From the sequence record OR786310.1: a DNA stretch of 64,000 nucleotides. One strand, 5' to 3'. The DNA comes from Escherichia phage ETEC-TG. The position numbers and the translations under genes are program-made. Within the stretch, counting starts at the first letter, position 1. The number at the start of each line of letters is the position of its first letter. Below are positions 1 to 17,926 of the stretch, piece after piece. The notes under the pieces were generated by a model, which did not search any database, had not been told where the DNA came from, and worked only from the letters and a program-made list of their open reading frames with translations.

Positions 1-264
1 TATGACATTCGTTTAAGGTGGAACACTAGGGACGAATCTTGGCAATGTCAAATGGGATTATCTGGAGATGATCCGAGTATAAGTTTCAAAGTTACAAATG
101 GTTTAGATCTTCTTAAACCTTATAAATATCTTGAAAGTGTACCAGATGGTCAATTGTATATAGTAGATACAGTTAAGATTAATGGTCGTCCTGGGTATAC
201 AACTACAGGTCGAGATAAACGTTTTGTATTGGTTTATATTGATAACAAACCTAATCAGGCGTAA
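1..264 (+). CDS. 3' end of upstream structural gene (5'-truncated by window edge)
   Basis: Frame 1 is open from nt 1 with no stop before 264; it is followed by an RBS and the next structural gene. Confidence 0.4.
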   Translation, partial: YDIRLRWNTRDESWQCQMGLSGDDPSISFKVTNGLDLLKPYKYLESVPDGQLYIVDTVKINGRPGYTTTGRDKRFVLVYIDNKPNQA

Positions 265-273
265 GGAGATAAT

Positions 274-2018: not shown

Positions 2019-2019
2019 C

Positions 2020-2646
2020 ATGGGAATCCCTTTTGACTTAAAACTTGGACCAAACAACGACCTCATCATGGATGATGGGGATTTGGTCCTCACTACAACC
2101 AGAACAGAAATTGCAGCACAAACTCTTGGGATAACTCTGAACACGTATCGTGGGGAGTGGTTTTTAAATACTAACTTCGGTGTTCCTTACTTACAAGAGA
2201 TTATTGGTGTTGCTAGAAAGAAAGATATTGTAGACAGAATATTTTTAGCAGAGATTGCCAAAAACGTTTACATAGATACAATAAACAGTTATAAATCTGC
2301 TTATGACATGGACCAACGTTATTATTCAATGACAGTTATGGTCACAGTTGGAGCAGATACAGTAACATCTATATTCAATACTCAACCTTCTGAAGAGTTT
2401 ATTTACCCTGAAGCTGGTGAAGACAATGCAGCGATCATTTGTGAAGCTTACAGTATTGTTGAGAATTCGAATAGACTTTATCGCTTTATCAACTTTGTTG
2501 GTTTGCCACGTGATACCTACTCTACTTGGTGGAATGAATGGTCTACAGAGTCAGCAGTGGAAAGAATCATGGTTAACGAAAAAGGTGATGCATTAGCTAC
2601 AAACAATGACTTCGGTATAACAGCTATGACAGGAGTAGAAGAGTAA
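2020..2646 (+). CDS. Baseplate wedge protein, gp25/GPW-like
   Basis: Motif LNTYRGEWFLNTNFG matches the GPW/gp25 signature (T-x-x-GE(W/R)-x-x-P/N-x-FG); 208 aa. Confidence 0.6.
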   Translation: MGIPFDLKLGPNNDLIMDDGDLVLTTTRTEIAAQTLGITLNTYRGEWFLNTNFGVPYLQEIIGVARKKDIVDRIFLAEIAKNVYIDTINSYKSAYDMDQRYYSMTVMVTVGADTVTSIFNTQPSEEFIYPEAGEDNAAIICEAYSIVENSNRLYRFINFVGLPRDTYSTWWNEWSTESAVERIMVNEKGDALATNNDFGITAMTGVEE

Positions 2647-3119
2647 TGGCAGATTTAACTACGATCAAAATTTCTGATCTTACACAAACAACCTCTGTGT
2701 CTGATACAGATTTCTTTGTAACAGATCAGGCTGGAATAACAAAGAAAACTTCTTTGAAAGTGCTGTTGAGTGGTGCAGGGGTAACTAGAAACCGTCTGAA
2801 TGCACGGGGAACAGTAACTAGCACCTTGGCATTAGATATTAGTTCAGCAGAATATTTTTCTGCAACTTTATCTTCTGCAACGTGCACAATTAGTTTTACT
2901 AATATTCCAGTAGCAACAAATGCAGTTTTAAACTTTACTTTAGCTTTGCGTCAAGGAAGTGGTGCAAATAAAGTCGTATGGCCTTCTTCTGTAAAATGGA
3001 GTTTTGGTCGCCCCCCAGTTTTGAGTTATCGTCAAGGTGCAACAGACACTTTTGAGTTTATCAGTTATGATAATGGAGCAACTTGGACAGGTAGCTTAGT
3101 TTTAGCAGGAGTTATTTAA
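2646..3119 (+). CDS. Hypothetical structural protein
   Basis: 157 aa ORF with ATG/stop overlap in the structural operon; no recognisable motif. Confidence 0.45.
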   Translation: MADLTTIKISDLTQTTSVSDTDFFVTDQAGITKKTSLKVLLSGAGVTRNRLNARGTVTSTLALDISSAEYFSATLSSATCTISFTNIPVATNAVLNFTLALRQGSGANKVVWPSSVKWSFGRPPVLSYRQGATDTFEFISYDNGATWTGSLVLAGVI

Positions 3120-5995
3120 TGTCAAGAGTTAAGCACAATATTGACAACACGTTTCAGTTGATTGAAGGGTTGGTTCAGTTTTTGGAAAGAAATACTGGTC
3201 TTACCATAGATCCTACGGTTCAGCACTACATTATCAACCCACAAAACGTATTGGCGAACAACAGACACTTTATTAACTGGACAGCGCAGGAAGGGCAACC
3301 AAACGGTGACGCTACTACCGAAGGTCAATCTGTGCTTATCACTGGTTTTGCTTATGCATATTTGGCTACAGGAGATAAAAAATATCTTGAATCTGCCGAG
3401 AAGTATTGGCAAGCCTATATAGATCACTTCTTCGGGGGCCAACCTATTCCTGATCCTCCAGCTAAGTATCGTCCCAACTGGATCATCAATGGTAAAGAAC
3501 CACGTTTAGCACACTACCCTCTCACAGATGATGGGTATCCTACGCACGGTGGGTTCAAAGGTAGCATGATGACTTGGATTAACGGAAGGACTGTTATTCC
3601 TAAAGGTGCGCCACATTGGGGAGAATACTTAGATAAAGCTTGGTTTGCTTTCAATGGTAATCTTGGTTGGAACTCTGTTAACGCAACAGTGTATGCAACT
3701 AACCCAGATGGTTCAACCAACTGGAAAGAATATGGAGATCAGTGGGACGTTGAATGGATTATAGATCGTCTAGGACGTAAAGTTGATTGGGATGGTAACA
3801 TTTTATCCACTGGGCATAGCTTTGCAGAATATGGAACAGTGCAACTTAAAAACGCTTCTGTGAACGGAGACTATAAATTCAACTACGCTACATGCAATCC
3901 TGTAGAACACGGTGGATATCTGCTTAAGCGTAATGAGATGTGGCATAACCGTCCTGTAAACGTTCCGGTAGAGTTAGGTTATCAAGACAATGCTTCCGAT
4001 GCTGAAACGTGGTGGTGTGATGCAAACTACTTGATGTATCAGATCACAGGAGAGAGAAAATACTGGCTTTGCTGGCAATCTTCTTTATTGTTGTGTCAAG
4101 ACTACTCAAACATCGATATGTTTGATAAATTCTTCCGTAGATCTACGACAGCAATAATTCCTTTTACAGATGGTATCTCGTATGATTACTCATACCCATC
4201 TACAGCAATACCTAAATATTCTCGTGACGAGTTAGGATACACAGTAATTCGCCAAGATGTTGCAGCACAAACAACTCTAGAACAACAGGCAGTTTGGTTC
4301 AGAGTGGATCAGAATTCAAAACTGCGTATTGAGTTTCAAGGCGTAGATGATGCAGGGGAAGGTGTTCTTTTCCGTCCAGAGTTAGAATTAAGCAAGACTA
4401 AGAGTGAAACAGACACAGTGACATATCGTTGTGGCTTACCTCTTGGTGCAGCTAATATGACTAAGATGGATATACCTTTATCCAGTTTTATGCGCACTGA
4501 ACCTCCTGGAGGTGGTGTATATATTATTGCTGAACCTAGAATCATTGTTGACTGGGGAAGCAATACTGTGATACAATATAAATATGCAACTGGTATTGCT
4601 GGGACAAATAGTGATCAGATAGTTTCTGCTAATATGGATTCAGATGGTGGTTTTACTATTGGGTTTTGGTTAACACCAACTAAAACAACCAATTTAAAAT
4701 CTATTACGTATCGTTCATACGCAGATGATTTTAACATCACTATTACGGATTCCGCAGGTTGGAGATGGTGGGCCATGTTAGAAAAAACAAATTCTGCATG
4801 GGTTACTAAAGCTTTAAGTCCTGCTGATTTCAAATTAAGTACTTGGCAACCTAATCACAATGACACAGAGACAAAACCTTCGTCAATAAACCTGACTGCT
4901 GTTGATCAGATGAACATTGCATTGGATTCTGAACCTGCAAATGGCTTGACAGGGGCAATCGACTTTTATTGCGTTAACGATATCCCATCTTTGTATTCTT
5001 CAGCCGCTGGTGATGATTACACAATGTATTTCAGGGTTACAGTTTCATCTGAAAATCCTTATACAGCAAAACTTGGAGATTGTACAATACTGGACTACAA
5101 ACTTGACAGTTTGAATTATACTCCAGGAATCATCCCATTTTCCAATATTAGTGATCCTAATACAGCATTATATGACGGTTGGCGTGGTATTCCTTACCCA
5201 GGTTATCAATACCCATCCTTATATTGTTTTAAAGGGAGAGATATTGACTGGGTTCGTATGAACAACAGTATAGACTTTTTATATGATTCACAAATGTGGT
5301 TTTATAATAAGTTTGCCCCTGTAATGCCTGGGCCAATGGCACAAGCTTATGTTTGGGATCGTTGGGATGCTCATAAATATGGAAACAAAAATGAGTTCAC
5401 AATGTATCATTGGAACGATAAAGCTTGGGATGGTTATGAAGCAAGAGCATTCTTCTGTGCGTGTCATACGGTATACGAACTAAAGCGACGAGGAGCCGAA
5501 GTTCCTGAAAAACTTTTAACAGTTTGTAAAAACTGGATCAACTACCTGAAGTGGTTCCAAGATAACAACGAAGGAAGAACACCAACAATATTTTATCCCA
5601 ACGGAGAAGTGGCTGCGCCTGTAGATGACTTTACAAGTCACATGTCTGCGCTCTTTATGGCGGGATGTGCTATAATGGGGATGGCTGGATATGATTCAGA
5701 AATTCCTAACATTAGAATAGTAGCAGATCGCTGTTTTGAACTTATTCAGGAAAACTATATTGTTCTTGGTCCTAATCACGTCATGAATGGTTGTTGGAGT
5801 GCTGCTCCTAGACCAGACAGTGATAACGGAGTCTTCTTTGGCTTCCACGCTGGAGAGTTGTTACGTGGTTTTGGGTTGTATGCTTTATACAAAAAACTTA
5901 ATCCCCAAAATGCATTACCTGTTTTGGATTCGAGCAATATTCCTGCACTTACTGTTTTGACAATGGCAAACATTAGTGTGGACGTTACCGAGTAA
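3119..5995 (+). CDS. Large structural protein, putative tail fibre / receptor-binding protein
   Basis: 958 aa ORF in baseplate/fibre module; Trp/Tyr-rich composition; function inferred from context. Confidence 0.45.
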   Translation: MSRVKHNIDNTFQLIEGLVQFLERNTGLTIDPTVQHYIINPQNVLANNRHFINWTAQEGQPNGDATTEGQSVLITGFAYAYLATGDKKYLESAEKYWQAYIDHFFGGQPIPDPPAKYRPNWIINGKEPRLAHYPLTDDGYPTHGGFKGSMMTWINGRTVIPKGAPHWGEYLDKAWFAFNGNLGWNSVNATVYATNPDGSTNWKEYGDQWDVEWIIDRLGRKVDWDGNILSTGHSFAEYGTVQLKNASVNGDYKFNYATCNPVEHGGYLLKRNEMWHNRPVNVPVELGYQDNASDAETWWCDANYLMYQITGERKYWLCWQSSLLLCQDYSNIDMFDKFFRRSTTAIIPFTDGISYDYSYPSTAIPKYSRDELGYTVIRQDVAAQTTLEQQAVWFRVDQNSKLRIEFQGVDDAGEGVLFRPELELSKTKSETDTVTYRCGLPLGAANMTKMDIPLSSFMRTEPPGGGVYIIAEPRIIVDWGSNTVIQYKYATGIAGTNSDQIVSANMDSDGGFTIGFWLTPTKTTNLKSITYRSYADDFNITITDSAGWRWWAMLEKTNSAWVTKALSPADFKLSTWQPNHNDTETKPSSINLTAVDQMNIALDSEPANGLTGAIDFYCVNDIPSLYSSAAGDDYTMYFRVTVSSENPYTAKLGDCTILDYKLDSLNYTPGIIPFSNISDPNTALYDGWRGIPYPGYQYPSLYCFKGRDIDWVRMNNSIDFLYDSQMWFYNKFAPVMPGPMAQAYVWDRWDAHKYGNKNEFTMYHWNDKAWDGYEARAFFCACHTVYELKRRGAEVPEKLLTVCKNWINYLKWFQDNNEGRTPTIFYPNGEVAAPVDDFTSHMSALFMAGCAIMGMAGYDSEIPNIRIVADRCFELIQENYIVLGPNHVMNGCWSAAPRPDSDNGVFFGFHAGELLRGFGLYALYKKLNPQNALPVLDSSNIPALTVLTMANISVDVTE

Positions 5996-6003
5996 GGGGT
6001 AAA

Positions 6004-8157
6004 ATGAAACAAGCTATATTTACTGTCACGCGAGACAAGAGAGTAAATGCGAGTTCATTTAACTACACGACTGTTGACGGAACAGCAGTCGCTGGTAGAG
6101 ATTATATTGCAAAATCGGGAACACTTGTGTTCCCTGATGATGCTGATTCTGCTACTATTGTGGTTGAAGTATTTGAACGACCAAAGAACTCAATAGATCT
6201 TAACTTCTCCCTCCAAGTTTCAGGGATTAGTCAAAATAACATGATGGTTGAAACAACCATCAATTGTATTATAACTACTATCCAAGAAAATACTACTCCA
6301 ATAACTTGGACTACAAAAGACGTTAAAATGTTCTCTCCTATGTATTGGACAATAGATTCTCAAGCAACGGAAAGTTGTTCTATTGTATCTCATGGAGACT
6401 CTTTTACTGCAAGATTTGTAAACAGAACAACAGCAGGTTTGGCAGGGGTTATCTGGAGCACAGTTGACAAATATGACCATAAAGGTGTTGGGTATTTGCC
6501 TCACACAGATTTAAGTTCAGAGAAACTTTGGTTTAAAATGGAAATTAGTCAAAACATGCCAGGTTTTAAAGAAGAACCTTTGGTGCCGACTTTGACTGTA
6601 ACTCTCCTGGATAAAAGTGTTCATTATGTCAGTTTAGGATTCTACGCTTCAGATATTTCAGAAGATGGTAAAACAGCCACAATAAAGTTAGATTTTGGTA
6701 ATATCTTTTCTGGCCCTAATAATGATATTCCTTTGGATATGAGTGCTGTAGATAATATTTTCTTCTCTTTGATTACAGCAAGGTATGAAAAAATAGAAGA
6801 GGTTGTACCTATTGACAGTCAAGAGGCTTGGTTTACTTTCACTCTTCTTGAACCTACTTCTGGTTACAGTATGATGAAAGTCAGCAACCTTGTCCAGCCT
6901 GAACATGATATTCGCATGTGCACATCTTATGATGATATGTATAACCTGACTCCAGAGAGAGTTATTTATAATACATATGCACTAGGTTATCGTGGAATGA
7001 TTAACCATTACAACGGAATGTCTCACTATTATGAGTTCTCATGGAACGGAACATCTTGGGCTTTAAATAGATCTGTTTTCCTGAATCCGGCTACAGAAGC
7101 TTGGCTAAATAGTTTCCATTCTATAGCAAACGAGAAGGGCTACACGATAATGAACTCTTTAAGTTTTGAATTGATGAGCACAGTTTGTCCTGTAGAATGG
7201 GTCCAGCATGATTGGAACGATGCTCTTGCAGCAACAGGGTATGAACCTCCTAGTTATGTGTTGTCTCCAACTATTGACGAAGGTATGGAATATTTGCAAA
7301 ATGTTATTAACAAAATAGCATCTATTTCGCAAGCTAATAATATTCCAGTTGTCATTCAAATTGGTGAGCCTTGGTGGTGGTATAATACAGCAAGTAAAAT
7401 GCCTTGCATATATGATTACACTACCAAACTGGCATTCAACACAGAAACAGGCTTATTTGCACAAGATGCAGGAACAATAGATAATTATAAAACAGGAACA
7501 CCGTTTGACGAATACTATGCATTTTTGTCTCGTAAACTAGGGTTAAGAGTTACAAAGTTTGCAACAGACACTAGAGCAACTTATCCAGGAGCTAAAGTAA
7601 CATTGCTGCCATTCTTACCATCAATTATCGGCAATGGTTTAATGGAGAAAGTTAACTTTCCGTCTGATTACTACATTCCTGAAGCTTTTGATTTTTATTG
7701 TTCAGAGTGTTACGACTGGCTTCTGGAAGGTAAAATGATGAAAGCATTTGATGCAATTACCATACCACATGAAAAATTAGGTTTTGAATATTCTGATATT
7801 CACTATCTTGCAGGTTTTGTTCCAGATGCTACTCTTGCACCTTTGTATGGCTTTGATCCTGAATCAAACTACCGCACGTATCTTTGGAAAATGATTATAG
7901 GTAACATAGTGTTGAACGCCAATAAGTTCAATGGACTTACACAATATATATGGGCCTATCCTCAAATAATGCACGATTCTATCACGGTAGTTAATTCTCA
8001 ATCCCAAGTTTTCTATATGGGTAACGTGCCTTTGAACGCTTATTTACAGGATATCACTCTTAAACAGGTAAATGTTGAGATTGCCACCATAAGTGGAATT
8101 ACATTAGCCACTAAATCTGGAGAAGATTTAGTAACAACACAAAAATTTTATATATAG
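6004..8157 (+). CDS. Structural protein with N-terminal Calx-beta-like domain
   Basis: N-terminus FTVTRDKRVNASSFNYTTVDGTAVAGRDYIAKSGTLVFPDDADSATIVVEVFE matches the Calx-beta consensus (T.DGTA.AG.DY...G.L.F); 717 aa. Confidence 0.5.
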   Translation: MKQAIFTVTRDKRVNASSFNYTTVDGTAVAGRDYIAKSGTLVFPDDADSATIVVEVFERPKNSIDLNFSLQVSGISQNNMMVETTINCIITTIQENTTPITWTTKDVKMFSPMYWTIDSQATESCSIVSHGDSFTARFVNRTTAGLAGVIWSTVDKYDHKGVGYLPHTDLSSEKLWFKMEISQNMPGFKEEPLVPTLTVTLLDKSVHYVSLGFYASDISEDGKTATIKLDFGNIFSGPNNDIPLDMSAVDNIFFSLITARYEKIEEVVPIDSQEAWFTFTLLEPTSGYSMMKVSNLVQPEHDIRMCTSYDDMYNLTPERVIYNTYALGYRGMINHYNGMSHYYEFSWNGTSWALNRSVFLNPATEAWLNSFHSIANEKGYTIMNSLSFELMSTVCPVEWVQHDWNDALAATGYEPPSYVLSPTIDEGMEYLQNVINKIASISQANNIPVVIQIGEPWWWYNTASKMPCIYDYTTKLAFNTETGLFAQDAGTIDNYKTGTPFDEYYAFLSRKLGLRVTKFATDTRATYPGAKVTLLPFLPSIIGNGLMEKVNFPSDYYIPEAFDFYCSECYDWLLEGKMMKAFDAITIPHEKLGFEYSDIHYLAGFVPDATLAPLYGFDPESNYRTYLWKMIIGNIVLNANKFNGLTQYIWAYPQIMHDSITVVNSQSQVFYMGNVPLNAYLQDITLKQVNVEIATISGITLATKSGEDLVTTQKFYI

Positions 8158-8165
8158 GAGTAAAA

Positions 8166-10418
8166 ATGTCAACTACAATTACTAATTTACCCGAAACATC
8201 AAAAGTTAATGGTTCTGATTACCTGGTTTTAGACCAACCTGATAAGACTGTTAAAAGCACAGTTTCCAACTTTCTTACTGACACTGGGGTGGTTTTAGCC
8301 ACCCAGTTGAAAGATACAGATGGAGCTACCAAGTATCCAGAACTTCAGATTGCACGCTGGCGAGACGAGGGAGATATCAGAGGGTGGGGCACGGAAACAA
8401 ACGGTGATGTTACCGAAGCAATCATTGAGGCGGTAGCGGCGACAAGCGGCACTATCATTGTGCCACCTGGTGACTATGTTGCCACACCTACGCTGGCCGA
8501 AGTTCCGGCTGTGCTGAAATTGCTGTCCCGCGCTGATTTTCGTGGCAGGTTGACCATTAATCTGCCAGCTGGGACGGTCAATCTGAACGAGCAGACAGTC
8601 ATAAATTCTAACAGGAGTAATCTGTGCAAGGTCATTGGCGTAGCGCTAAACACGAGCGTTACAGGGCTTGTTTCTGTAGCTGGGTCAAGCAAGCAATATT
8701 CGATAACTCTGTCCCTGGCAGATGCCTCGCAGGTGTCAGTCGGTGACTATGCCATCTTCAGGCACGATCTGACGGGAACTGGTTTTTTCCACATACACTG
8801 CGGGGGCTGGCGGGTAACGGCTGTGTCCGGCAATAACGTGACCGTGCTCAACACATGCGTCTTGGATTCATTCCCTTCGTCAACCGTTACCGGTGGATCA
8901 GTCTCCATTATCAAGTCCGTTCTGAAATACACCGGCTGTGATGGGATTAGACCGGAGGGCGGCGACTGTATCGGAATTATTGATAATGTCGCCATCGTGG
9001 GTGATTACAACCTTGCTACCGGCGCAGGGACAATCGGTGCTCACGGCGTAATATCCTCAACACCCGTAGTAGTCACCGACGCCGCCAACGCATCCAACAA
9101 CGTAGCGAATATGGCGGCAGCGCTGGCCCTGGGACGAAATATTGCAATCAGTGCCTGGGGTGAGCAAGGGCTGGCAGTGTCGGGTCGCTCTGCGCTTGTG
9201 TGTAACTTCATCGCATCCTGTGCCAACCGTAAGCGTGGTATTTATGCGGAAGGTGCTCATATACGCGGGAAATTTATGATCGCCTCCGGAAACGGAGAGG
9301 ACGGCATTATTTCAGATACCACTGGATTTGTGCAGGCTGCATATGCCGTTTGCTCGGGTAACGGATTAAACGGGTTCTGGTCAACAAACCTCTCTCTTAT
9401 TGCGGCGGCAAGGGGAGTGGCTTGCTGTAACAAAACAAATGGTGTGGAGGCAAGGGGGCAGACAAGGCTCGCATTTGATCTCGGCCTTTCCTACGGAAAC
9501 GTTCTAAACGGTGTCAGCGCCTCTGATGGGGGCATGATTGACTTTGATGGCGGCATGTCAAGAGACAATCTCGTTGACGGGATCGCAGCGACATACAATG
9601 CAGTAGTTGACGCGAACAACGCCTCCAGTACCACCAATGGTCGTTACGGTACTAACGTGACCTCCGCGTGCATTATCATTTCAGGGACTGGTACTATATC
9701 TGGGAATACAGGGGCGGATGTTCGTGATAACGGCAATGGGATGGTTGTCCGACCAGACGGCACGATCTACCCATTCACTGGGGTCGCACAGGGTAATCTG
9801 TCGCTAAGAAACACCGTCAGCGGCGCGGGGGTTGACATTGTTCCTACAAGTATAGGTGACTTAATTCTGAGCTTTAAAAACTCAGCAGGCGGAACGCTTA
9901 ACCCGTTATACAACTTCAAAGCCGACGGTACTCAGTACCCTCAAAATGACGCGACGCAAAGCCTTGGGCGTGCCGCTAACCGATACAATGTCGGTTTCTT
10001 CGCTGGCGGAACACAGTCAACTTCAGATGCCACACTTAAAGACCCTATCCGGGAGTTCAATCAGGCCGAACTTAATGCAGCAATGCGAATCGCAAAAATG
10101 CTGGGTTTCTGGACATGGCTGGATGATGCCGGAAAACGGCTTCATGCAGGGACAACAGTGCAAGCGGTACTGGAGGTGCTGGAAGAAGAGGGACTCGACT
10201 GGCGTAACTATGGTTTCATCGGATTTGATGAGTGGGATGATGAATATATCCCAGTAACCATTGAGGTAGATGGCGAAGTCGTTGAAACAGGGGAAACGAA
10301 ATTAGTGCGTGAGGCTGGTTCTGTCTGGCAACTGCGCGATCAGGAATTTGACCGTTTCGTTATGCGTGGACTTTCTGAAAGGCTGAGTATTATAGAAAGT
10401 AAGCTGGATTTACTGTAA
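8166..10418 (+). CDS. Tailspike protein with beta-helix-like receptor-binding domain (GC-rich, mosaic)
   Basis: 750 aa; AT-rich conserved N-terminus followed by a markedly GC-richer body with Gly/Asn/Ser/Thr-rich repeats typical of pectate-lyase-type beta-helices. Confidence 0.55.
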   Translation: MSTTITNLPETSKVNGSDYLVLDQPDKTVKSTVSNFLTDTGVVLATQLKDTDGATKYPELQIARWRDEGDIRGWGTETNGDVTEAIIEAVAATSGTIIVPPGDYVATPTLAEVPAVLKLLSRADFRGRLTINLPAGTVNLNEQTVINSNRSNLCKVIGVALNTSVTGLVSVAGSSKQYSITLSLADASQVSVGDYAIFRHDLTGTGFFHIHCGGWRVTAVSGNNVTVLNTCVLDSFPSSTVTGGSVSIIKSVLKYTGCDGIRPEGGDCIGIIDNVAIVGDYNLATGAGTIGAHGVISSTPVVVTDAANASNNVANMAAALALGRNIAISAWGEQGLAVSGRSALVCNFIASCANRKRGIYAEGAHIRGKFMIASGNGEDGIISDTTGFVQAAYAVCSGNGLNGFWSTNLSLIAAARGVACCNKTNGVEARGQTRLAFDLGLSYGNVLNGVSASDGGMIDFDGGMSRDNLVDGIAATYNAVVDANNASSTTNGRYGTNVTSACIIISGTGTISGNTGADVRDNGNGMVVRPDGTIYPFTGVAQGNLSLRNTVSGAGVDIVPTSIGDLILSFKNSAGGTLNPLYNFKADGTQYPQNDATQSLGRAANRYNVGFFAGGTQSTSDATLKDPIREFNQAELNAAMRIAKMLGFWTWLDDAGKRLHAGTTVQAVLEVLEEEGLDWRNYGFIGFDEWDDEYIPVTIEVDGEVVETGETKLVREAGSVWQLRDQEFDRFVMRGLSERLSIIESKLDLL

Positions 10419-10484
10419 TTAAGAGCCGCTATCTCCTACTATGATGGCGGCAACCTTAAAATATTTACGTGGGGGAGCCACCTA

Positions 10485-10727
10485 ATGAGAAAATTTTTAA
10501 TAGGTATGTTTTGTACATATCCTGATAATAAAGTCAGTTCTACGAAAGTCTGGAACGCTGTAGGTATGTCGGTTATGACAGGCATGTTTATCTTTTTAGG
10601 AATAGAAAAAGAAATTCCTGAATGGATGGGTTGGGCTTTTGTTTTCATGATAACTCCTTCTCGCCTCATGAAAAATCTTATTGATTTACGCTGGGGCAGA
10701 TCACAATCTACCAAAGAGGATGACTAA
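10485..10727 (+). CDS. Small membrane protein (two predicted TM helices; holin-like)
   Basis: 80 aa, GGGGAG RBS, two hydrophobic stretches, charged C-terminus. Confidence 0.4.
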   Translation: MRKFLIGMFCTYPDNKVSSTKVWNAVGMSVMTGMFIFLGIEKEIPEWMGWAFVFMITPSRLMKNLIDLRWGRSQSTKEDD

Positions 10728-12214
10728 TGGACGAATATGGTTTGACAGATGCGGGATTTGTAATCCCGACTTTTGACGATGTTTTAAACAACTACATGAC
10801 AGCAGTAAAAAACACATTTGGTGCAGATGCAGCCACTTCGGAAGATACTGTGATCGGACAACTGTTTAGAATAATTGCATACACAGATTACACATTGTGG
10901 GAAGGTATGCAAGGTGTTTATAATACTCAAACACTAGATGGTGCAGAAGGTATTTATCTTGACGAAATCTTTTCTAAACGCGGTTTCTATCGAGCAGGGG
11001 CAGCAGCAAGTACAGGGTATGCCTATGTTAAGAGTAATAACAAAGCAGCTTGGACTTATGAGTTAGGCACAGATATTTACTTCAACTCTGATAGTGATAT
11101 GAACTACTATGTTAGCACACCAACTATGTTGAATGCTAAGATTGCAGCTTATCAAATCTCCCGTGCTAATGCAACAGCTACAGGTGTTCCAAATATTACT
11201 TTTTATGCACAAAGTGCGGTAGATGGAGGATTAAACAGTAAAACACTTGCACCTGGTTCTTCTACATTTATAACCGATCTTGAAACTTTTATCAAGGCGA
11301 ATTTAACAGAAGCTGATCGTAGTCTTGTATTTTCTGATTCAGGTAACTTGTCAATTGGTTTTACTTCTTTAACCAGTGATACTCCAGTGGGACTAGTAAC
11401 TCCTATCAAATTTTATGCCAGTGTTCCAGTTGGAACCAAATGGAGTGAAATTCCAGTAGTTGCAGCAGAGAAAGGATACAATCCTGTTGGTGTGGAGTCT
11501 ATTACAGGGATATCTTCTACCTTTACAGGTTATCTTGACAGTGGTAACTTTTATTCGTTTTCTCCTGGTCGGGATGTTGAGACAGACGCAGAATTCCGCT
11601 CTCGTTTCAATGACAACGTTGATGAAGCTAACGCAGGGACACGAGCAGCTATTGTGAAAGCTCTGTTACTTACAGATGGTGTCACTAAGGTGAAGATTTA
11701 TGATAACCCTACGTTACATGATCAAGAACACGCTCCGGCTATGACTTTCCAGACTATAGTGTATGGTGGCAGTGCAGAAGAAATTGCAAATGTTATCTAT
11801 AAAACCAAACCAATCAACACTTTGACACACGGAACAACTAACATAACAGTTACAACAGAAGATGGAGGACAAGAAATTATTCGCTTCTCTCCTGGTGCTT
11901 CTGCTATGTATTCCGTAAAACTTGTTTATCAAACTGTCAACGGAACAACTTTAAGTGGAACAGAAAAACAAAACATCGTAGAAGCTTTACAAAACCTGCA
12001 AGCTTACTTTGAGTTAGGTTCTTCAGTAACAAACGATCAAATCAAAGGTGTTATTTATGCAGCACTTGCTTTTGGACGCTTGACTTCTCTTCGTGTTTAT
12101 GTTAAACTTAATACTGAGGATGACAGTAAATATACAGAGAATAATATAGTTCCTGCTTATAATGTTGTCCCTTCTTTTGACCTTGATAACATTTCTTACG
12201 AGTATGGAGTGTAA
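10727..12214 (+). CDS. Baseplate J-like protein (gp6/gpJ family)
   Basis: 495 aa; N-terminal region (FVIPTFDDVL...LDGAEGIYLDEIFSKRGFYRAGAAASTGY) resembles the Baseplate_J family; context. Confidence 0.55.
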   Translation: MDEYGLTDAGFVIPTFDDVLNNYMTAVKNTFGADAATSEDTVIGQLFRIIAYTDYTLWEGMQGVYNTQTLDGAEGIYLDEIFSKRGFYRAGAAASTGYAYVKSNNKAAWTYELGTDIYFNSDSDMNYYVSTPTMLNAKIAAYQISRANATATGVPNITFYAQSAVDGGLNSKTLAPGSSTFITDLETFIKANLTEADRSLVFSDSGNLSIGFTSLTSDTPVGLVTPIKFYASVPVGTKWSEIPVVAAEKGYNPVGVESITGISSTFTGYLDSGNFYSFSPGRDVETDAEFRSRFNDNVDEANAGTRAAIVKALLLTDGVTKVKIYDNPTLHDQEHAPAMTFQTIVYGGSAEEIANVIYKTKPINTLTHGTTNITVTTEDGGQEIIRFSPGASAMYSVKLVYQTVNGTTLSGTEKQNIVEALQNLQAYFELGSSVTNDQIKGVIYAALAFGRLTSLRVYVKLNTEDDSKYTENNIVPAYNVVPSFDLDNISYEYGV

Positions 12215-12216
12215 AA

Positions 12217-12846
12217 ATGGCAGTGAGTGTTGACCATGTAACAACTTGGGCCAGTATCAATGAAGATGTTAAAAACCTTCTGATTGAAGATTTTAAATCT
12301 TCTCCTAACATTGTCAAGCTCCTCTACATCGTATCCAGTGAAAAGCAAAAGATAGATCAGGCAATGATCTATCTTGCTAAACACCGCTTGATCTCTACAG
12401 CCACAGGCAAATACCTAGATATTCTAGGGGAAGAAATGGGGATCGAACGTAATGGCTCTGATGATGAAGAGTATAGAACAATATTAAAAATCAGGGCTTA
12501 CCGCGTAGCCTCATCGGGGACTCGTGGTGACATAATTGATATCTTCGCCCGTTTCACAGGAACAGAGCGTGAAACGCTTAATACTTACGTAGGTTTGAAT
12601 AAAACCTTTGATGTGTTTTTCTACAACCTGTGTCTTCAATCTGATCAAGCTTTAGAGCAGTTGCTAAGTGTTTTCCCTATTATTAGTAGCTACCGTCTTG
12701 GAGCAAAAGCAGGATCAGCTTTTGGTTTTAGTTCTTATTATGCTACCAAACCGCCTCATGGTATTGGTGGTTTAGGTTCCCTGTACATGGAATCTACTGG
12801 GGATGAAACAGGACGCATGTGTACGCTTCTCAAGCAAATAGATTAA
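12217..12846 (+). CDS. Baseplate/tail protein, gpI-like
   Basis: 209 aa ORF directly after J-like gene, as in P2-type baseplate operons. Confidence 0.4.
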   Translation: MAVSVDHVTTWASINEDVKNLLIEDFKSSPNIVKLLYIVSSEKQKIDQAMIYLAKHRLISTATGKYLDILGEEMGIERNGSDDEEYRTILKIRAYRVASSGTRGDIIDIFARFTGTERETLNTYVGLNKTFDVFFYNLCLQSDQALEQLLSVFPIISSYRLGAKAGSAFGFSSYYATKPPHGIGGLGSLYMESTGDETGRMCTLLKQID

Positions 12847-12855
12847 GGAGTTTAA

Positions 12856-13917
12856 ATGGCGAAGCCAATATATTATCCTGACTGGGCTACACAAACTGTA
12901 ACGCTCCCAGGAACTTTAAACACAAACAAAATTAGACCTAAAGAAACGATCCGCACAGTTGGTATGGATTATGGTCAAATCATGACTTGCGAAGAAATGA
13001 ACTGGATTCTTAATAATATCGGTTTATGGATTCGCTATTTGGTGGATGACTTTCTTCCAACTTTACCTAATACCTACTTGCCTTTAGTGGGAACTAAGAT
13101 TACAATGGCAGGTGATGCTACTGGTGAGGCTACTTGGAACGGTAACAAAGAAGTTACTTTATCTATCCAGGTTCAAGATAACAGTCATAATCACTTGTCG
13201 GCAAACATTACAGATGCCACTAGTTCAACAGTAACACCAAACGTGCTGGTAAAACGTGATGCGGGTGGTGCTATTTATGGTGGCGATGTTTATGTTAACG
13301 GTACTTCCACAACAGATCCTGCAACACTGTTCTTCAAAAACTTTGCAGGACAAACAAATGGTGAGATTTCTGCCGAGTATCAAAGCGGAGGTCAGCTTTA
13401 TATTTATCGTAGAAATCCTAGCACAGGTAGTGTATCGGCAGGTGTTCGTTTATATGATGCAGGTTATGTTCTAATAGATAATCCAAGATCAAACAGTGGA
13501 CAAGATACTTCTAACGGAAATGCTTTAGTTCGTTTAGATTATCTGAACTCTCGTTTGACTTCCCTTCAGAACACATTGCAGACGAATATTAACACTGTTC
13601 AAAACAACTTGAATAATGTTAACAACAACCTCTCTTCTCGTATAAACAATGTAGAAAGTAATCATCAAAGTCAGATTACAAATAACTACAACTATGCTAA
13701 CGGAACCTTTGTAAGAGATATTCGTTATACTAGCCAAGGTGTGTATTATCCACCAGGGAACGAGGTTTCTTGGACTTATATCTGTTCTTCTGGTTATGTT
13801 CTTTCTGGTATTATCGTACAGGAAACAGGACGTAGCTCTGCGGATAACATCGGTGGGGTTTACTTCAAACGCCTCCAGCGCAACGTTAACGGAAACTGGT
13901 ACGATATTGGAGGCTAA
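12856..13917 (+). CDS. Tail fibre protein with coiled-coil shaft
   Basis: 353 aa; Asn/Gln-rich heptad region LNSRLTSLQNTLQTNINTVQNNLNNVNNNLSSRINNVESN; followed by a tail-fibre assembly gene. Confidence 0.55.
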   Translation: MAKPIYYPDWATQTVTLPGTLNTNKIRPKETIRTVGMDYGQIMTCEEMNWILNNIGLWIRYLVDDFLPTLPNTYLPLVGTKITMAGDATGEATWNGNKEVTLSIQVQDNSHNHLSANITDATSSTVTPNVLVKRDAGGAIYGGDVYVNGTSTTDPATLFFKNFAGQTNGEISAEYQSGGQLYIYRRNPSTGSVSAGVRLYDAGYVLIDNPRSNSGQDTSNGNALVRLDYLNSRLTSLQNTLQTNINTVQNNLNNVNNNLSSRINNVESNHQSQITNNYNYANGTFVRDIRYTSQGVYYPPGNEVSWTYICSSGYVLSGIIVQETGRSSADNIGGVYFKRLQRNVNGNWYDIGG

Positions 13918-14463
13918 ATGATATTTACAAACTTTAAAAAATATATTCCTGAAGACCCTGAACTAAAAGAATTGGTAGAAGCAGAGAACATTCTTTTTCT
14001 TCGTTGCGATCAAGGTTACGATTGGTATGATTTACGTAGCACAGAATTCAATAACGATAAAATGAAAGTCGTTTTTGATGATCAAAATCGTATTGTGTTT
14101 TGGAATACTGATCCTACACTACTTTGCCCTGAAGATCTTTCTATAGCACAAGTAGATTTTAATATAGATACTTTTGAGGATATTAGGAACAAGGTTCTGG
14201 ATTTAGAAACCTTAACTCTTAAGGATAAAGAGTATTCCCGTGAAGAGTTGATGACACAAGCTAGTGCAAAAATTCGCTCTTTACAAGAAACAGCGGTAGC
14301 ACTTATAACACCTTTACAGTATGCTAAAGATTTAGAAATGGCTACTGAAGACGAATTAGCTTATCTTAAAAATCTTCAAGTTTATGTAGTTAAACTAAAT
14401 CGTGTTCCGCTTCAAAAAGACTATCCTTACGCTATAGATTGGCCTACATTACCGACAGAATAA
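13918..14463 (+). CDS. Tail fibre assembly chaperone (Caudo_TAP-like)
   Basis: 181 aa; C-terminal DYPYAIDWPTLP resembles the tail-fibre assembly protein family C-terminus; located after a fibre gene. Confidence 0.55.
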   Translation: MIFTNFKKYIPEDPELKELVEAENILFLRCDQGYDWYDLRSTEFNNDKMKVVFDDQNRIVFWNTDPTLLCPEDLSIAQVDFNIDTFEDIRNKVLDLETLTLKDKEYSREELMTQASAKIRSLQETAVALITPLQYAKDLEMATEDELAYLKNLQVYVVKLNRVPLQKDYPYAIDWPTLPTE

Positions 14464-14472
14464 GGGATCACT

Positions 14473-14808
14473 ATGGAATTTCAAGAAGCATGGGGACTTG
14501 CAAAGGATGCAATAATCCCTTTAATCGGAGTCATCTGGTTCTTTTTCAAACAAAAAATGGATAAATTCGGCTCTGATCTTGAGGAAATGGAGGAGAAAAG
14601 TCGAGAGCTAGAGAAGAAGTTGGTCTTTGTTGAATCAACTTACGCAACTAAAGCCGAACTTACCCAGATGCTAAATCAAATTAACTCTACATTAATGGCA
14701 AATAACAACACCCTTGAGCAAAAAATTGAAAAGATTATGGACCTCAAGAATGCGACTATCCAAATGATGCTAGATGACATAGTTAAACGTACACAGAATA
14801 AGGGGTAA
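14473..14808 (+). CDS. Small membrane-anchored coiled-coil protein
   Basis: 111 aa; N-terminal hydrophobic helix (IIPLIGVIWFFF) followed by charged coiled-coil. Confidence 0.4.
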   Translation: MEFQEAWGLAKDAIIPLIGVIWFFFKQKMDKFGSDLEEMEEKSRELEKKLVFVESTYATKAELTQMLNQINSTLMANNNTLEQKIEKIMDLKNATIQMMLDDIVKRTQNKG

Positions 14809-14811
14809 TTA

Positions 14812-17800
14812 ATGGCAACATTCCCAACATATCCAGCAACGTCTCTCGAACAGGGCGTAGACCTGGTTATTTTCTCATCTAACCAACTCCATGATGTTAT
14901 TAATGGAAGTGCTACAGAGAGTATTGAAACAGAATCAGGGTTGATACCAACCCTGAGAAAAGCCCTTGTTGACAACTTTTTCTTTAAAAGCCCATTGGAT
15001 TGGGCGCAAGGCACAAACGAAACAGTTTTTAACCAACTTCGTTATTTCCAGAATGGAGTATTGAGCGGTTATTACTATGCTCCTAACGCTACATTGGTTA
15101 ACCCAATCCCTATGCAAGGGACTCCAGTAGGAGATAACAACTGGGTATTGTGGGGACTGAAAACAGAACAATTAGCAACAGAAGTCACCCCGTGGGTATA
15201 CTCTGGTGCAACTGGTTATGAAACAGTAATTAGTCCTCCTTACATCTTTGATAGTGCTATTGTTACGATCAATGGTGTTATTCAGGTTCTGGGGGAAGCT
15301 TTCCGTATAGAAGACAGTAAGATCATCTTATCTGAACCTTTGGGACACGATCCTGCAACAGGACTGCCAAACAAGCTTTTTGCTTATATTGGTAAAATCG
15401 TAGCTTCAGCAGATACAGATCCTAATCTAGAGAACCGTCTTGTTAGTTTAGAAACAAAAACGGAAGAACTAACAGAAAGCATGGATAAAGTCCCTCTGCA
15501 AGCTATTGCTCGTAAGTATGGTTTGTTAGATGATGAGGTGGCTTACGCAACAGCAGGTCAATCGTTAACAGGGATTAAAGCTCTGTATGATCCGGTAGCA
15601 CAGTCTTCCTACACATTACCTCCTAACATCACAGGAACTTTAACATCCTTATCTGTTTCTGGAGTAATGACTTATTCTGGAGGATCTGTAGACCTTTCTG
15701 CACTGGCTGTTGAGCGTGGACAGTTTGTTCATTTGCCTACAAGCTTTGGTAATAACGTAACTCTGACAGCTAAAAATCAGACGATTGGACGTGGTGCTGG
15801 TCGTTATCGTTGGGCTGGAAGTTTACCAAAAAGTATTTTGGCCTCTGATACATTGGAGACAAGCGGAGGATTAGGTCCAAATGCATGGGTTCTGACTAAT
15901 ACAGAAGGACTGTTAACCCCTCGTGGTGGAACATACAACGATCTATTCGATGTTGTCTACTTGTCAGAATTTGCTAACAATACAACTACCTATACCACAC
16001 CAGAAGCAGCTTTCCAGGCGGCACTGTTAGCAGCAAAAGCTTCGAAAAGCAAGATTCTCGATGCTTACGGTTGCGACATGACTTTCACGACAAGCTCTTT
16101 TGATATTCAAGATATCACTTTGCGTGGTGGTGTGTTCCGTGGTCAACGCGACTATCGTGTGCAGAATGCTACAGTAGAAGGCACAACTTTCCGTAACTCT
16201 CGTGTTATGTATTGGGGTGGTGCTGTGCGCATGTTCGATTGTTTGTGGGACGGTGCTCCTCGCGCAGGTCAAGTTGGTAGCTTGGTATTCCAAGGCAACC
16301 CAATATCAGGTACTTTTGAAATTGATAATTGTACTTTTAAAAACGGGTTATATGGCATTCTTCAACAAGGAACAGGGGAACCAGTAACACGCGGTGTCTT
16401 CCGTAACCTTACCTTCATGGACATGCAAGGTGATGCAATAGAACTGAACGTCATCAATAAACATTATGACGATGGTTGTGTGATTGAGAATATTTACCTG
16501 TCTAATATCGATGGGACTAACGCTCCTATTCCTCTGTCCAACTGGGGTATCGGTATCGGTGTAGCTGGTAAAGGACCATATGGTTACGGAATCCCTGATG
16601 ATCAATATTGTAAGAACATTACAATTCGTAACGTTTTTGCAAAACGTTGTCGTCAGATTGTCCACGTAGAAGTTGGTCGTAATATCTCTATCGAAAACAT
16701 TCATGGCGATCCAGATCAAACCGTATCTGTTGGGACAGGTTTGGCAACTGGCGCAGTTGTAATGTATGGAAGTAAAGACTTTACGATTGATGGTGTTTAT
16801 GGAGAGCCTAAAACAGACGGTAGCACACTTGCAAGTAATATCCGTATGATTTACTTGGAGTGGGGAACTAACGCAGTTCTGGATGAAGAGGGTAATCCGG
16901 TAGTTCCGGCACAAGGCAGACCTTCAAACCCATGCTTTAACTATTCTGTTCGTAACATTCACACCAAAACTGGGCGTGTTTTTGCGGGAGTTTCCGCTGG
17001 GCCAGGTTATGAAAACAGAGTTAGCTTTGAAAATATTCGTTGCGCTGCCTTGCAGTTGTTCGGTATAGCTTCTTGGCTTTCAATGTCTAACATCACCTGT
17101 AATATCTTCGATTGTGTTGGTCAACCTGAATCTGGTCCAGGGACATTTTATGATGGATTCTTCCGTAGAGAAAAATCTGTTCTTGAAATGGTTAACGTAA
17201 ACTGTTACCCAGATGGCAAGACGATGGTTACTGGTCGTCCACAGTGGAGCCGTTGCCGTTACTCGGATATTCATCGTGTCAACTGTAATGTTGAAGCTAA
17301 TATGTATACCAATATCGCAGGTGGTATTGGAGCTATTGTAGGGACAACGGGCAAAGTTTATTACTTAGAGCCTAATCCTAGTCGAAACATTGATGGAATG
17401 CATTTCCCAACAGGGAAAGAGTTTGACAAAGGGGATATGATAGTCAAGGCGGATAATACGTTCTTCCTTGTAACAACAAGTGGGGCATATATTCCAGATA
17501 TCCCAGCTTTCGGTATTCGAGCTACACAGGCAGGAGATACCTTCCTGACACAGAACTTGACTCCTAACGGGACAGCAACAAATGCTTCTTGGTTGTATCA
17601 TTACCCTCTGTCAGCAGGGACACGTATCCGTATTCCTGGCGCTGGTGTAGGTGGAGCAGATTTGGACACAGTTATTACTCGTGCACCTTATCAAGATAAT
17701 GATACGTGGACTAACCCAGTTAAAATAGACATTGCAGATCCAATTGTAACGCCTACAAGTGCTGGAGTTAGAATTAAAACCATACCTAATGATTCCAGTA

Positions 17801-17865: not shown

Positions 17866-17871
17866 TGGAAT

Positions 17872-17890
17872 AGAGGGGGATTCCCCCTCT
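17872..17890 (+). terminator. Stem-loop AGAGGGGGA-TT-CCCCCTCT after tailspike gene
   Basis: Perfect 8-bp G/C-rich inverted repeat 7 nt after stop; weak T-tract. Confidence 0.4.
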
Positions 17891-17926
17891 TCTTCCAATA
17901 GAATGGTCTAATGATAGGAGAGATAA

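Follow-up and report, generated by a model that had tools for sequence, protein, structure and literature searches.

Phages of the phi92 family carry several tailspikes that act in parallel, with gp143 of phi92 making up the distal portion of fibre I (PMC13450770, PMC11984140). Pas et al. 2023 described conserved anchors, swapped receptor-binding domains and conserved flanking motifs for Justusliebigvirus and further genera (PMC10408124). The same study found that the receptor-binding protein of phage VEcB resembles prophage proteins of O6, O11 and O153 strains and treated it as a case of receptor-binding protein exchange with prophages (PMC10408124). For a further relative, 536_P1, a resistance study implicated the LPS core and K15 capsule overproduction and assigned no receptor to the tailspike (PMC11495123).

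Escherichia phage ETEC-TG is a phi92/phAPEC8-like myovirus of the genus Phapecoctavirus. A 64,000-nt stretch of its DNA (OR786310.1), referred to here as the window, was analysed, and the gene at 8166-10418 was found to encode a modular tailspike. The protein is identical to GenBank WPK30732.1, an Escherichia phage ETEC-TG entry named 'hypothetical protein ETECTG_CDS0217'. No contig encoding the 750-aa tailspike came up in an exact-protein look-up, and a literature search for a paper on phage ETEC-TG found none. Synteny with VEcB genes 139-141 and phi92 gp142-gp144 shows that the gene occupies the phi92 gp143 slot. Its anchor and its gp142/gp144-flanked position identify it as a member of the gp143-slot tailspikes, the distal proteins of Stephanstirmvirinae fibre I. 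Taken as a whole, the data are very probably best explained by a modular tailspike in which a prophage-type cassette sits on the anchor of the phage's own lineage. The features on which this reading rests, and those used for comparison, are:

8166-10418, plus strand: complete tailspike gene, 750 aa and stop (ORF list, synteny, exact-sequence look-up)
8166-8326, plus strand: backbone N-terminal anchor, aa 1-54 (backbone homology, AT-rich composition)
8278-10385, no strand: GC-rich block, 52.1% GC inside and 36.6% outside (two-breakpoint maximum-likelihood fit)
8327-8405, plus strand: linker or neck, aa 55-80, with the motif KYPELQIARWRDEGDIRGWG (cross-phage nucleotide and protein matches)
8406-9755, plus strand: right-handed parallel beta-helix body, aa 81 to ~530 (structure model)
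8466-10215, plus strand: inner replaced block (50-nt and 60-nt identity profiles against 536P1 and VEcB)
9756-10022, plus strand: distal beta-strand domain and stalk, aa 531-619 (strands at 545-592 in the model)
10023-10415, plus strand: C-terminal intramolecular chaperone/autoprotease, Peptidase_S74, aa 620-750 (PF13884, PDB matches)
10419-10484, plus strand: cassette-specific intergenic spacer (shared with 536P1 and VEcB at 96-100%)
10485-10727, plus strand: first post-cassette backbone gene, 80 aa, in the phi92 gp144 position (dw-ec homology, synteny)
14812-17865, plus strand: colanic-acid-degradation-type tailspike of the phi92 gp150 type (phrog_6117, E 1.7e-282; Pfam Tail_spike_N)

The first-pass annotation had described a GC-rich body grafted onto an AT-rich tailspike N-terminus, and the sliding-window profile, which is not flat, confirmed a GC step inside the gene. 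In 300-nt windows, GC is 0.34-0.39 before 8250, 0.50-0.56 over 8250-10350 and 0.38-0.43 thereafter. The stretch 8340-10340 has 52.3% GC against 39.0% in the rest of the window (z = 8.7), and the next-highest 2-kb stretch outside it reaches 43.9%. It is the sole GC island in the 64 kb, every other 1-kb bin being at or below 44.4%. The two-breakpoint fit gained 33 nats over a homogeneous model and gave 2-lnL ranges of 8254-8359 and 10203-10452; these ranges include both limits proposed originally, 8340 and 10418. Over its first ~160 nt the gene matches the AT-rich backbone, as the annotation had stated (GC 0.377, GC3 0.30).

Codon-level analysis provides further evidence. The body (computed on 8406-9965) has a GC of 0.526 and a GC3 of 0.537, versus a GC3 of 0.21-0.35 in nine neighbouring genes. 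The codon-usage comparison proposed with the annotation agreed with the GC profile: the RSCU of the body correlates with that of the backbone at r 0.09, against 0.71-0.92 for the neighbours (leave-one-out, nine genes), and with that of prophage genes at r 0.42-0.47. The composition and codon usage of the cassette are those of ~50% GC E. coli prophages, unlike those of the 39% GC phage.

A GC-rich block could also arise without foreign origin, from the residue composition of a beta-helix rich in Gly, Ala and Asn or as a trait intrinsic to the family. This would agree with GC1 (0.54) and GC2 (0.50) of the body, which are also somewhat above those of some neighbours, and it does explain the slight GC excess of 14812-17865. 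It is contradicted by the body's third codon positions and its RSCU correlation with the backbone, and by the coincidence of the homology breakpoints, described below, with the compositional ones. The wider family was examined in 15 genomes that carry the body; an IMG/VR profile scan contributed 11 distant loci, used solely for this composition control. Body GC spans 30-61% across these genomes and in 12 of them lies at most 7 points from that of the flanks, homologous bodies tracking the GC of the resident genome (for instance 29.7/29.5 in L009 and 61.2/63.8 in L008). Because these 12 bodies follow their flanks, the beta-helix body family is not intrinsically GC-rich. The outliers in body-versus-flank GC are the ETEC-TG gene (+13.5), L007 (+11.4) and VEcB (+10.1). 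The third-position and family-wide controls thus refute an amino-acid-make-up origin of the block; the GC shift of the body is not an amino-acid-composition effect, and an origin without foreign DNA is scarcely credible.

Two further compositional claims fared less well. The annotation had seen a similar but weaker shift at 14812-17865, and this is not a graft. Total GC of that gene is slightly raised (43.1%), with the excess in GC1 and GC2, and because its GC3 (0.318) and codon usage (RSCU r 0.83) are backbone-like, it is a native gene. Among the 15 best-matching relatives, identity over the segment 10419-18000, which contains it, is 97.9-99.4%. The annotation had also attributed antisense ORFs in the cassette to a scarcity of stop codons. 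Off-frame stops are indeed fewer (0.050 per codon in the tailspike gene against 0.056-0.071 in seven other large genes of the cluster), but the longest antisense open runs, of 116, 90 and 47 codons, are not longer than those of the AT-rich neighbours, which reach 127-191. The alternative-frame ORFs at 8747-8995 (minus strand) and 9946-10257 (plus strand) were considered as genes and rejected: both are interrupted by stops in homologues and are therefore spurious. A promoter/terminator scan of the cassette borders, including the spacer at 10419-10484, saw no terminator-like site, and promoter-like matches were at chance level only.

Comparison with related phages places the outer junctions precisely. 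Across the first 161 nt of the gene, relatives such as KKE7M, Ro121c4YLVW and ECGD1 show 99-100% identity. This part encodes the anchor, which presumably docks the spike onto the baseplate fibre complex and whose residues 1-45 have a pLDDT below 50 in the monomer model. The nearest backbone relative, dw-ec, is 99.2% identical upstream and 99.4% identical downstream of the cassette; its homology stops at 8326 and restarts at 10485, the exact ATG of the 10485-10727 gene. The spacer at 10419-10484 is absent from dw-ec and most other relatives. The mosaic is nested, and 8327-10484 is its first layer, defined against phages of the dw-ec type, whose slot holds another spike.

GC begins to rise in the linker, which directly follows the anchor. 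The linker motif also occurs at the anchor/body junction of tailspikes of unrelated phages; it is present in the phi92 gp143 and CUS-3 proteins and matches PDB 9vvr, a 'tail spike protein', with an E-value of 1.4e-11. At the nucleotide level, the linker is 81-87% identical to the endosialidase-type gp143 alleles of phAPEC8, REC, ASO2A and SF1-1, and 77-80% identical to the P22-like CUS-3 endosialidase tailspike and to the ~39-kb phages pO2 and Vec13. It is likely to act as the 5' homology arm for exchange. Its conservation across genera bears only indirectly on the conserved-motif hypothesis of Pas et al.

The annotation had pointed to enterobacterial prophage tailspikes as a place to look for relatives of the GC-rich part, and the search found them. 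The best DNA match is P0001 (EKJ4653669.1), from a lambdoid prophage (Minor_tail_Z, TMP, GpJ) that adjoins cadC and toxin-antitoxin genes in an E. coli-type chromosome of ~51% GC; body and chaperone domain are 94% identical in amino acids and 87% in nucleotides. In a second homologue, P0002, from a podovirus-type prophage adjoining ppk/ppx, the corresponding values are 79% and 77%. Both have the GC of the ETEC-TG body. They differ from the ETEC-TG protein in their length (844-886 aa) and in their entirely other N-terminal anchors, of the Tail_spike_N type in P0001, which fit another virion type. Both are also mosaic relative to the ETEC-TG gene: P0001 is close (90-98% nucleotide identity) only over 8406-9425 and P0002 only over ~8646-8885, and the distal third has no relative above ~88% nucleotide identity. 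More widely, the anchors among 81 homologue matches include the P22 head-binding PF09008 (24), PF18668 (6), the T7-type PF03906 (2) and PF27114 (3), and relatives of the body were found behind P22-type, T7-type and Tail_spike_N anchors.

The exact donor was not found: when the body was compared by blastn with 5,426 complete E. coli genomes, the best matches reached 64-69%, with none above ~70% nucleotide identity, a search among plasmids gave no match, and neither two scans of species-representative genomes nor a single-protein scan of IMG/VR found anything. The combined evidence supports a recent import in which a body from E. coli prophages was joined to the anchor that the phage already had. 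The central claim of the first-pass annotation, a horizontally acquired receptor-binding body on a conserved anchor, was upheld by every test run.

The closest described tailspikes reveal the second layer of the mosaic. VEcB QOI68078.1 (vecB_140) and the proteins of Justusliebigvirus alia and Phapecoctavirus 536P1 share with ETEC-TG the slot, anchor, linker, body family, chaperone domain and length (749/750 aa), and the ends of these VEcB-type proteins are ~95-100% identical to those of ETEC-TG. The interior (aa ~101-600) is only ~57% identical in VEcB, and the ETEC-TG gene is more GC-rich (GC3 0.54 versus 0.41) and closer to another prophage lineage. The identity profiles show 94-100% identity to the VEcB/536P1-type allele in the 300 nt up to 8465, ~55% inside the block, patchy values (72-98%) over 9916-10215 and 90-100% beyond. 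The second layer therefore runs from 8466 to ~10215, taking as reference an allele of the VEcB/536P1 type, which belongs to the same body family. The slot already held such an allele, and its interior was then replaced again, with the 5' junction in the linker and beta-helix cap common to several morphotypes and the 3' junction within the chaperone domain.

The ETEC-TG and VEcB/536P1 proteins are colinear (750 versus 749 aa, one gap, 70% identity overall), as they would be if the two alleles were diverged orthologues from one old acquisition and no second recent exchange had taken place. Divergence of this kind is very improbable here, given the abrupt fall in identity at 8466 and its recovery after ~10216, flanking genes that are 96-100% identical to 536P1, an interior that is 90-98% identical to a prophage gene, and a body GC3 of 0.537 in ETEC-TG versus 0.410 in VEcB. 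A technical origin was also weighed, in which phage reads were joined to prophage reads of the propagation host during assembly; the body does resemble E. coli prophage genes, and host DNA occurs in lysates. The reading frame is nevertheless unbroken across both junctions, and the junction sits in a linker that other phages use too. VEcB, alia and 536P1 independently show the same architecture and length, the 750-aa protein occurs at 98% identity in other, independent public assemblies, and the 3' end and intergenic spacer are 96-100% identical to 536P1. An assembly artefact can hardly be entertained, and a nested tailspike mosaic is the reading retained.

The graft is multi-part, comprising linker, beta-helix, distal domain and Peptidase_S74 chaperone, and the chaperone travels with the body. 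Residues 620-677 match PF13884 over profile positions 1-58 of 58 with 35.4 bits (cut-off 22). PDB matches of this domain are 4uw8 (E 2.4e-25), 7y5s (1.2e-19), 6eu4 and 3gud, and 3gw6 was also found by Foldseek. The C-terminal ~130-200 aa are homologous to those of the T5 L-shaped tail fibre pb1 (4uw8) and of EndoNF (3gw6), with the Ser-x4-Lys pattern aligned; this module is all they have in common, and the receptor-binding parts are unrelated. The motif TSDATLK contains Ser620 and Lys625, the lysine lying five residues downstream of the serine as at cleavage sites of this domain type, and aligns with 'TADARLK' of the 4uw8 chain, which is the Ser-to-Ala non-cleaving mutant. Low pLDDT at 613-621 fits an exposed loop at the predicted cleavage site. 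From these residues the domain is predicted to be cleaved off after trimer folding, and its identity as a trimer-assembly chaperone argues, indirectly, for a homotrimeric tailspike. The preceding distal domain ends at the predicted autoproteolysis site, has low pLDDT at 537-543 and 613-621, and aligns with the region of T5 pb1 (4uw8) that precedes the chaperone domain.

Structure prediction, the other check proposed with the annotation, modelled the body as a right-handed parallel beta-helix (AF2 pLDDT 85). In this monomer model the central domain has the parallel beta-helix that characterises tailspike depolymerases, with a regular 23-residue coil repeat and an Asn ladder at positions 399, 422, 445, 468, 491 and 514. 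Searches with aa 81-550 gave no specific family match in Pfam, PHROGs or NCBIfam and no match in a PDB sequence search, in which only the chaperone domain and linker of the protein were matched. The structural neighbours of the body all share at most 17% sequence identity with it and comprise hydrolases, lyases, epimerases and adhesins in about equal measure. Among them, as beta-helix depolymerases or uronate epimerases/lyases, are CBA120 TSP2, 7w1c (Klebsiella K1 lyase), K64-1 S2-4, AP22 gp54, LKA1 gp49, K5 lyase, AlgE4 and AlgG.

Alignment of homologues down to ~30% identity identified (near-)invariant residues D259, D280, H293, E333, Q334, R355-R357, Y360, R367, K369, E378, D379 and D384. 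These charged and aromatic positions are candidate active-site residues. The conserved residues matched no characterised active site, and because no catalytic residues matched, the chemistry of the known beta-helix enzymes is not transferable to this protein. The body is predicted to be a receptor-binding and probably also glycan-cleaving module. The annotation's wording, a receptor-binding or depolymerase domain, holds for an acquired tailspike body with a beta-helix; its depolymerase part stays an inference. The body is 57% identical to the receptor-binding domain of VEcB, above the criterion of at least 30% used for including receptor-binding proteins and below the >75% cited for confirmed serogroup-specific subtypes (Pas et al. 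2023, PMC10408124). It is probably a different specificity variant.

An endosialidase function of the body was considered and rejected. Phi92 gp143 (endosialidase EndoN92) shares with the ETEC-TG gene the genomic slot, anchor and linker, with 90.6% nucleotide identity over gene nt 1-224, and it shares with it, as do the K1F and CUS-3 endosialidases, the layout of an anchor followed by a catalytic body and a self-cleaving chaperone at the C-terminus. Past gene nt 224 there is no similarity to phi92 gp143, and the ETEC-TG body, unlike it, is a beta-helix. No endosialidase domain (GH58: EndoN92, K1F, CUS-3) was found in the tailspike by Pfam, NCBIfam, PDB or structural comparison; the gene shares only slot, anchor, linker and chaperone domain with endosialidase tailspikes. 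With no endosialidase match and a beta-helix body, polysialic acid is therefore unlikely as a substrate.

The sole relative with receptor data is the tail fibre of IMM-002, which is reported to depend on CS3 fibrillae, a protein and not a glycan (PMC6301781). The beta-helix family includes this CS3-dependent ETEC phage and prophage spikes of ETEC reference strains. The body could instead be a non-enzymatic adhesin that binds a protein target, an ETEC colonisation-factor fibrilla for instance, and does not cleave polysaccharide. This is unlikely, as the invariant charged and aromatic residues form the pattern expected of an active-site groove, and glycan-active tailspikes, lyases or epimerases make up most of the structural neighbours. 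Moreover, CS3-positive ETEC belong largely to a few O-serogroups, so the CS3 dependence of IMM-002 may be confounded with O-antigen type; the presence of VEcB-type bodies in prophages of O6:H16 strains supports such a link. More doubtful still is the idea that the beta-helix family recognises an ETEC-lineage-specific structure that is neither O-antigen nor capsule, again for example colonisation-factor fibrillae. If true, ETEC prophages would have supplied a lytic myovirus with a spike that binds a protein receptor, and a protein-targeting beta-helix spike that retains enzyme-like conserved residues would be unusual.

A glycan-directed, prophage-type cassette on a lineage-specific anchor remains the preferred reading, and a mechanism can be proposed for it. 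The cassette of linker, beta-helix, distal domain and chaperone circulates among E. coli phages of different morphotypes and would have been imported through recombination while the phage infected a lysogen. Linker and beta-helix cap, both conserved, would provide the 5' homology arm and the conserved chaperone domain the 3' arm. In the virion, the lineage's own anchor (aa 1-54) would attach the spike to the fibre complex of the baseplate, while the chaperone domain would aid trimerisation and then be cut off before Ser620. The beta-helix would bind, and probably cleave, O-antigen or capsule polysaccharide on the surface of certain E. coli strains, probably ETEC. The tailspike would in this way add another host-specificity 'blade' to a multivalent adsorption apparatus.

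Conceptually, the locus confirms the established principle of host-recognition module swapping and adds no new principle. A protein deposited as 'hypothetical' gains a functional annotation and precise module boundaries. The locus also shows that a virulent phage recently took over a host-recognition module of a temperate one, with the compositional footprint intact and the junctions mapped. The swap points for bodies shown here are useful for predicting or engineering which hosts phi92-like therapeutic phages infect, and the target strains' own prophage tailspikes offer a natural supply of compatible modules.

The gene at 8166-10418 (+) encodes a 750-aa product identical to GenBank WPK30732.1, deposited as "hypothetical protein ETECTG_CDS0217" of Escherichia phage ETEC-TG; a literature search found no paper mentioning this phage. 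Homologues of phi92 gp142 and gp144 flank the gene, which places it in the slot that holds the endosialidase tailspike gp143 in phi92; a 2026 cryo-EM study (PMC13450770) located gp143 at the distal end of fibre I of the baseplate. The flanks match dozens of phi92/phAPEC8-like phages at ~98% identity, and identity to the nearest backbone relative, Escherichia phage dw-ec (Stephanstirmvirinae, Phapecoctavirus), is 99.2% over 1-8165 and 99.4% over 10485-18000.

In 300-nt windows, GC content is 0.34-0.39 until ~8250, 0.50-0.56 over 8250-10350 and 0.38-0.43 thereafter. The GC step that the first-pass annotation had proposed for 8340-10418 is therefore present and sharp, and the profile is not flat. 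The interval 8340-10340 has 52.3% GC versus 39.0% in the rest of the 64-kb window; outside the block, the top 2-kb window reaches 43.9% (the block lies 8.7 SD out) and all 1-kb bins are at or below 44.4%. A two-breakpoint likelihood fit delimited the GC-rich block to 8278-10385 (gain 33 nats), with support ranges of 8254-8359 and 10203-10452 for its edges, indicating that the original coordinates were accurate. The shift is largest at silent sites, with a GC3 of 0.537 in the body versus 0.21-0.35 in nine neighbouring structural genes. Codon usage is shifted as well: relative synonymous codon usage (RSCU) of the body correlates with that of the AT-rich backbone at only r = 0.09, versus 0.71-0.92 for each neighbour (gene left out of the reference set), and with that of prophage genes at r = 0.42-0.47.

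The protein follows the textbook layout of endosialidase tailspikes and many others, namely an anchor, an exchangeable receptor-binding body and a self-cleaving chaperone domain. Besides the beta-helix body, the following parts were delimited, all on the + strand:

Anchor, aa 1-54 (8166-8326): AT-rich; disordered in the monomer model
Linker, aa 55-80 (8327-8405): contains KYPELQIARWRDEGDIRGWG
Distal domain, aa 531-619: small, beta-strand; has the predicted cleavage site at its end
Chaperone domain, aa 620-750: Peptidase_S74 intramolecular chaperone

The chaperone domain matches PF13884 (35.4 bits) and T5 pb1 (4uw8, E 2.4e-25), and carries Ser620 and Lys625 within TSDATLK. The anchor (gene nt 1-161) is 99-100% identical in relatives such as KKE7M, Ro121c4YLVW and ECGD1, and a search with the junction region returned 37 records at ≥99%. 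The linker motif shares 81-87% nucleotide identity with endosialidase-type alleles of the same slot, and 77-80% with the P22-like CUS-3 endosialidase spike and the ~39-kb phages pO2 and Vec13. The linker recurs at the junction of anchor and body in different phage types, and may be equivalent to the 'motif one/two' that Pas et al. 2023 put forward as a recombination hotspot. At the protein level, the motif YPELQ(I/M)ARWRDEGD(I/V)RGWG (8311-8389, aa ~49-75) is near-identical in the tail spike PDB 9vvr (linker motif at residues 214-245), phi92 gp143 and the CUS-3 endosialidase.

When 5.8 billion proteins were searched with the body, 81 relatives were retrieved. The best, P0001 (94% aa identity; gene 87% identical over 8406-10408), comes from a lambdoid siphovirus prophage, where it is the tailspike; the locus (50.7% GC) also codes for Minor_tail_Z, tail_U, tape-measure and GpJ-type proteins and adjoins cadC and toxin-antitoxin genes. 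Members of the 90% cluster of P0001 come from E. coli. The second-best, P0002 (79% aa), lies in a podovirus-type prophage adjoining ppk/ppx. Together with the conserved backbone anchor, the match to P0001 upholds the proposal of a horizontally acquired body. In the hit table, other relatives carry PF09008 (P22 head-binding, 24), PF18668 (Tail_spike_N, 6), PF03906 (T7 fibre, 2) or PF27114 (3) anchors, and most retain the S74 domain. This variety of anchors indicates that body and chaperone domain form a cassette moving among siphoviruses, podoviruses and myoviruses.

Intrinsic GC-richness of the protein family was ruled out by comparing homologous bodies with their flanks in 15 genomes. The bodies span 29.7% to 61.2% GC; in 12 of the 15 genomes they lie within 7 points of their flanks, mostly within 3 (for example, 29.7/29.5 and 61.2/63.8% GC for body/flank). 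Because most bodies follow their own flanks, the family is not GC-rich by nature. Clear departures are limited to three: +13.5 points in the window, +10.1 in VEcB and +11.4 in one IMG/VR contig. The window copy is too recent to have drifted to the composition of its present genome. Body minus flank GC is +1.0 and 0.0 points in the prophages; since body composition fits the flanks there and not in the lytic phage, transfer from prophage to lytic phage is supported. The outlying contig (IMGVR_UViG_3300034682_000034, 4001-5509) encodes a body homologue of 45% aa identity at 51.8% GC versus 40.5% in its flanks, apparently a separate, recent acquisition by a second AT-rich phage.

Homology to dw-ec stops at 8326 and restarts at 10485, the exact ATG of the next gene; the dw-ec slot holds an unrelated 632-aa protein. 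In that locus (OL739525.1, L004 2796-5076), the 632-aa ORF is followed by ~380 nt without an ORF of ≥150 aa, and the stretch is unannotated. VEcB and 536P1, the latter of the same genus, have an allele of this family that is colinear and encodes 749 aa (70% aa identity overall). Identity to these alleles stays at 94-100% for the last 300 nt before 8466, drops to ~55% over 8466-9915 and is uneven (72-98%) across 9916-10215; from 10216 it recovers to 90-100%, a level kept to the end of the intergenic spacer 10419-10484. Identity to the P0001 gene is 90-98% over 8406-9425 and 73-88% beyond. With the P0002 gene (L003 10001-12661), the maximum of 92-98% is confined to ~8646-8885, some 240 nt of the N-terminal beta-helix, with 53-88% elsewhere; this within-body mosaicism indicates that exchange units can be smaller than a whole receptor-binding domain. 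The mosaic is nested, in two layers. In the most economical history, a phi92-like ancestor would first have held a VEcB-type cassette, whose interior would later have been replaced through recombination with at least one prophage tailspike of the same family, and the crossovers would fall within the conserved beta-helix cap (near aa 100) and the chaperone domain. The higher GC3 of the window body (0.537 versus 0.410 in VEcB) is consistent with a later import. The chimera is not an artefact: the reading frame is unbroken across all junctions, the same architecture is seen independently in VEcB, alia and 536P1, and a 98% identical 750-aa protein is present in other public assemblies.

The product is most likely a trimeric spike, with the chaperone domain predicted to be cut off before Ser620 and the beta-helix to bind surface polysaccharide. 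The beta-helix probably also cleaves it: D259, D280, H293, E333, Q334, R355-R357, Y360, R367, K369, E378, D379 and D384 are invariant or near-invariant across relatives down to ~30% identity, and such conservation of charged and aromatic residues gives indirect support for an enzyme. The best viral structural match is ETEC phage IMM-002, whose reported dependence on CS3 fibrillae (PMC6301781) keeps alive a minority alternative in which the receptor is a protein rather than a glycan. Context, this match to IMM-002 included, points to a specificity linked to ETEC. The phage name is one pointer, and the VEcB-type body (L001 9300-10750) has 83-86% nucleotide matches in 16 complete E. coli genomes, two of them labelled O6:H16; nothing above ~70% turned up for the window-type body in that collection of complete genomes. 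VEcB-like spikes occur in prophages of O6, O11 and O153 strains (Pas et al., PMC10408124). Many strain names among the 16 (E8, E66, E143, E1535 and others) resemble ETEC reference strains.

The first-pass annotation had also reported spurious antisense ORFs and a weaker, similar shift at 14812-17865. The GC-rich gene does have slightly fewer off-frame stops (0.050 per codon versus 0.056-0.071 in the seven other large cluster genes), and the ORFs are spurious, but its longest antisense open runs do not exceed those of AT-rich neighbours. Two alternative-frame ORFs were rejected as genes, as stops interrupt both in homologues. The gene at 14812-17865, a colanic-acid-degradation-type tailspike (phrog_6117, E 1.7e-282; Tail_spike_N), is no graft: its 43.1% GC reflects an excess at codon positions one and two, with a GC3 of 0.318 and native codon usage (r = 0.83), and the segment containing it is 97.9-99.4% identical in the best-matching relatives. 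Its product has 1017 aa versus 2415 nt (~804 aa) for the annotated VEcB homologue, and its N-terminal ~200 aa match the separate tail-fibre PHROGs phrog_4549 and phrog_2710; it may have its own modular N-terminus despite native composition.

Upstream of the tailspike, 6004-8157 encodes Calx-beta plus the N-terminal and TIM-barrel domains of a 'non-contractile tail sheath protein' (PF23844, PF23845), an odd set for the receptor-binding cluster of a contractile-tailed phage. Two more receptor-binding-type genes, 17927-19951 and 19993-22665, have native GC3 (0.25-0.26); one combines Tail_spike_N with a collagen triple-helix repeat, the other RCC1-like repeats with a Big_2 Ig domain. GC skew starts out positive (1-22 kb), turns negative (23-57 kb) and is positive again from 58 kb; the sign changes at ~22700 and ~57500 presumably mark changes of transcription direction between gene modules.

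Receptor-binding-domain exchange between lytic phages and prophages, including Justusliebigvirus VEcB and the conserved motifs flanking the exchanged domain, was detailed by Pas et al. 2023 (PMC10408124). The exchange principle is already known and will not surprise the specialist. Particular to this case are an allele that had not been described and is filed as a hypothetical protein, a compositional footprint of unusual cleanness, and a mosaic of two layers whose junctions are mapped. These are useful for the annotation and host-range engineering of phi92-like phages.
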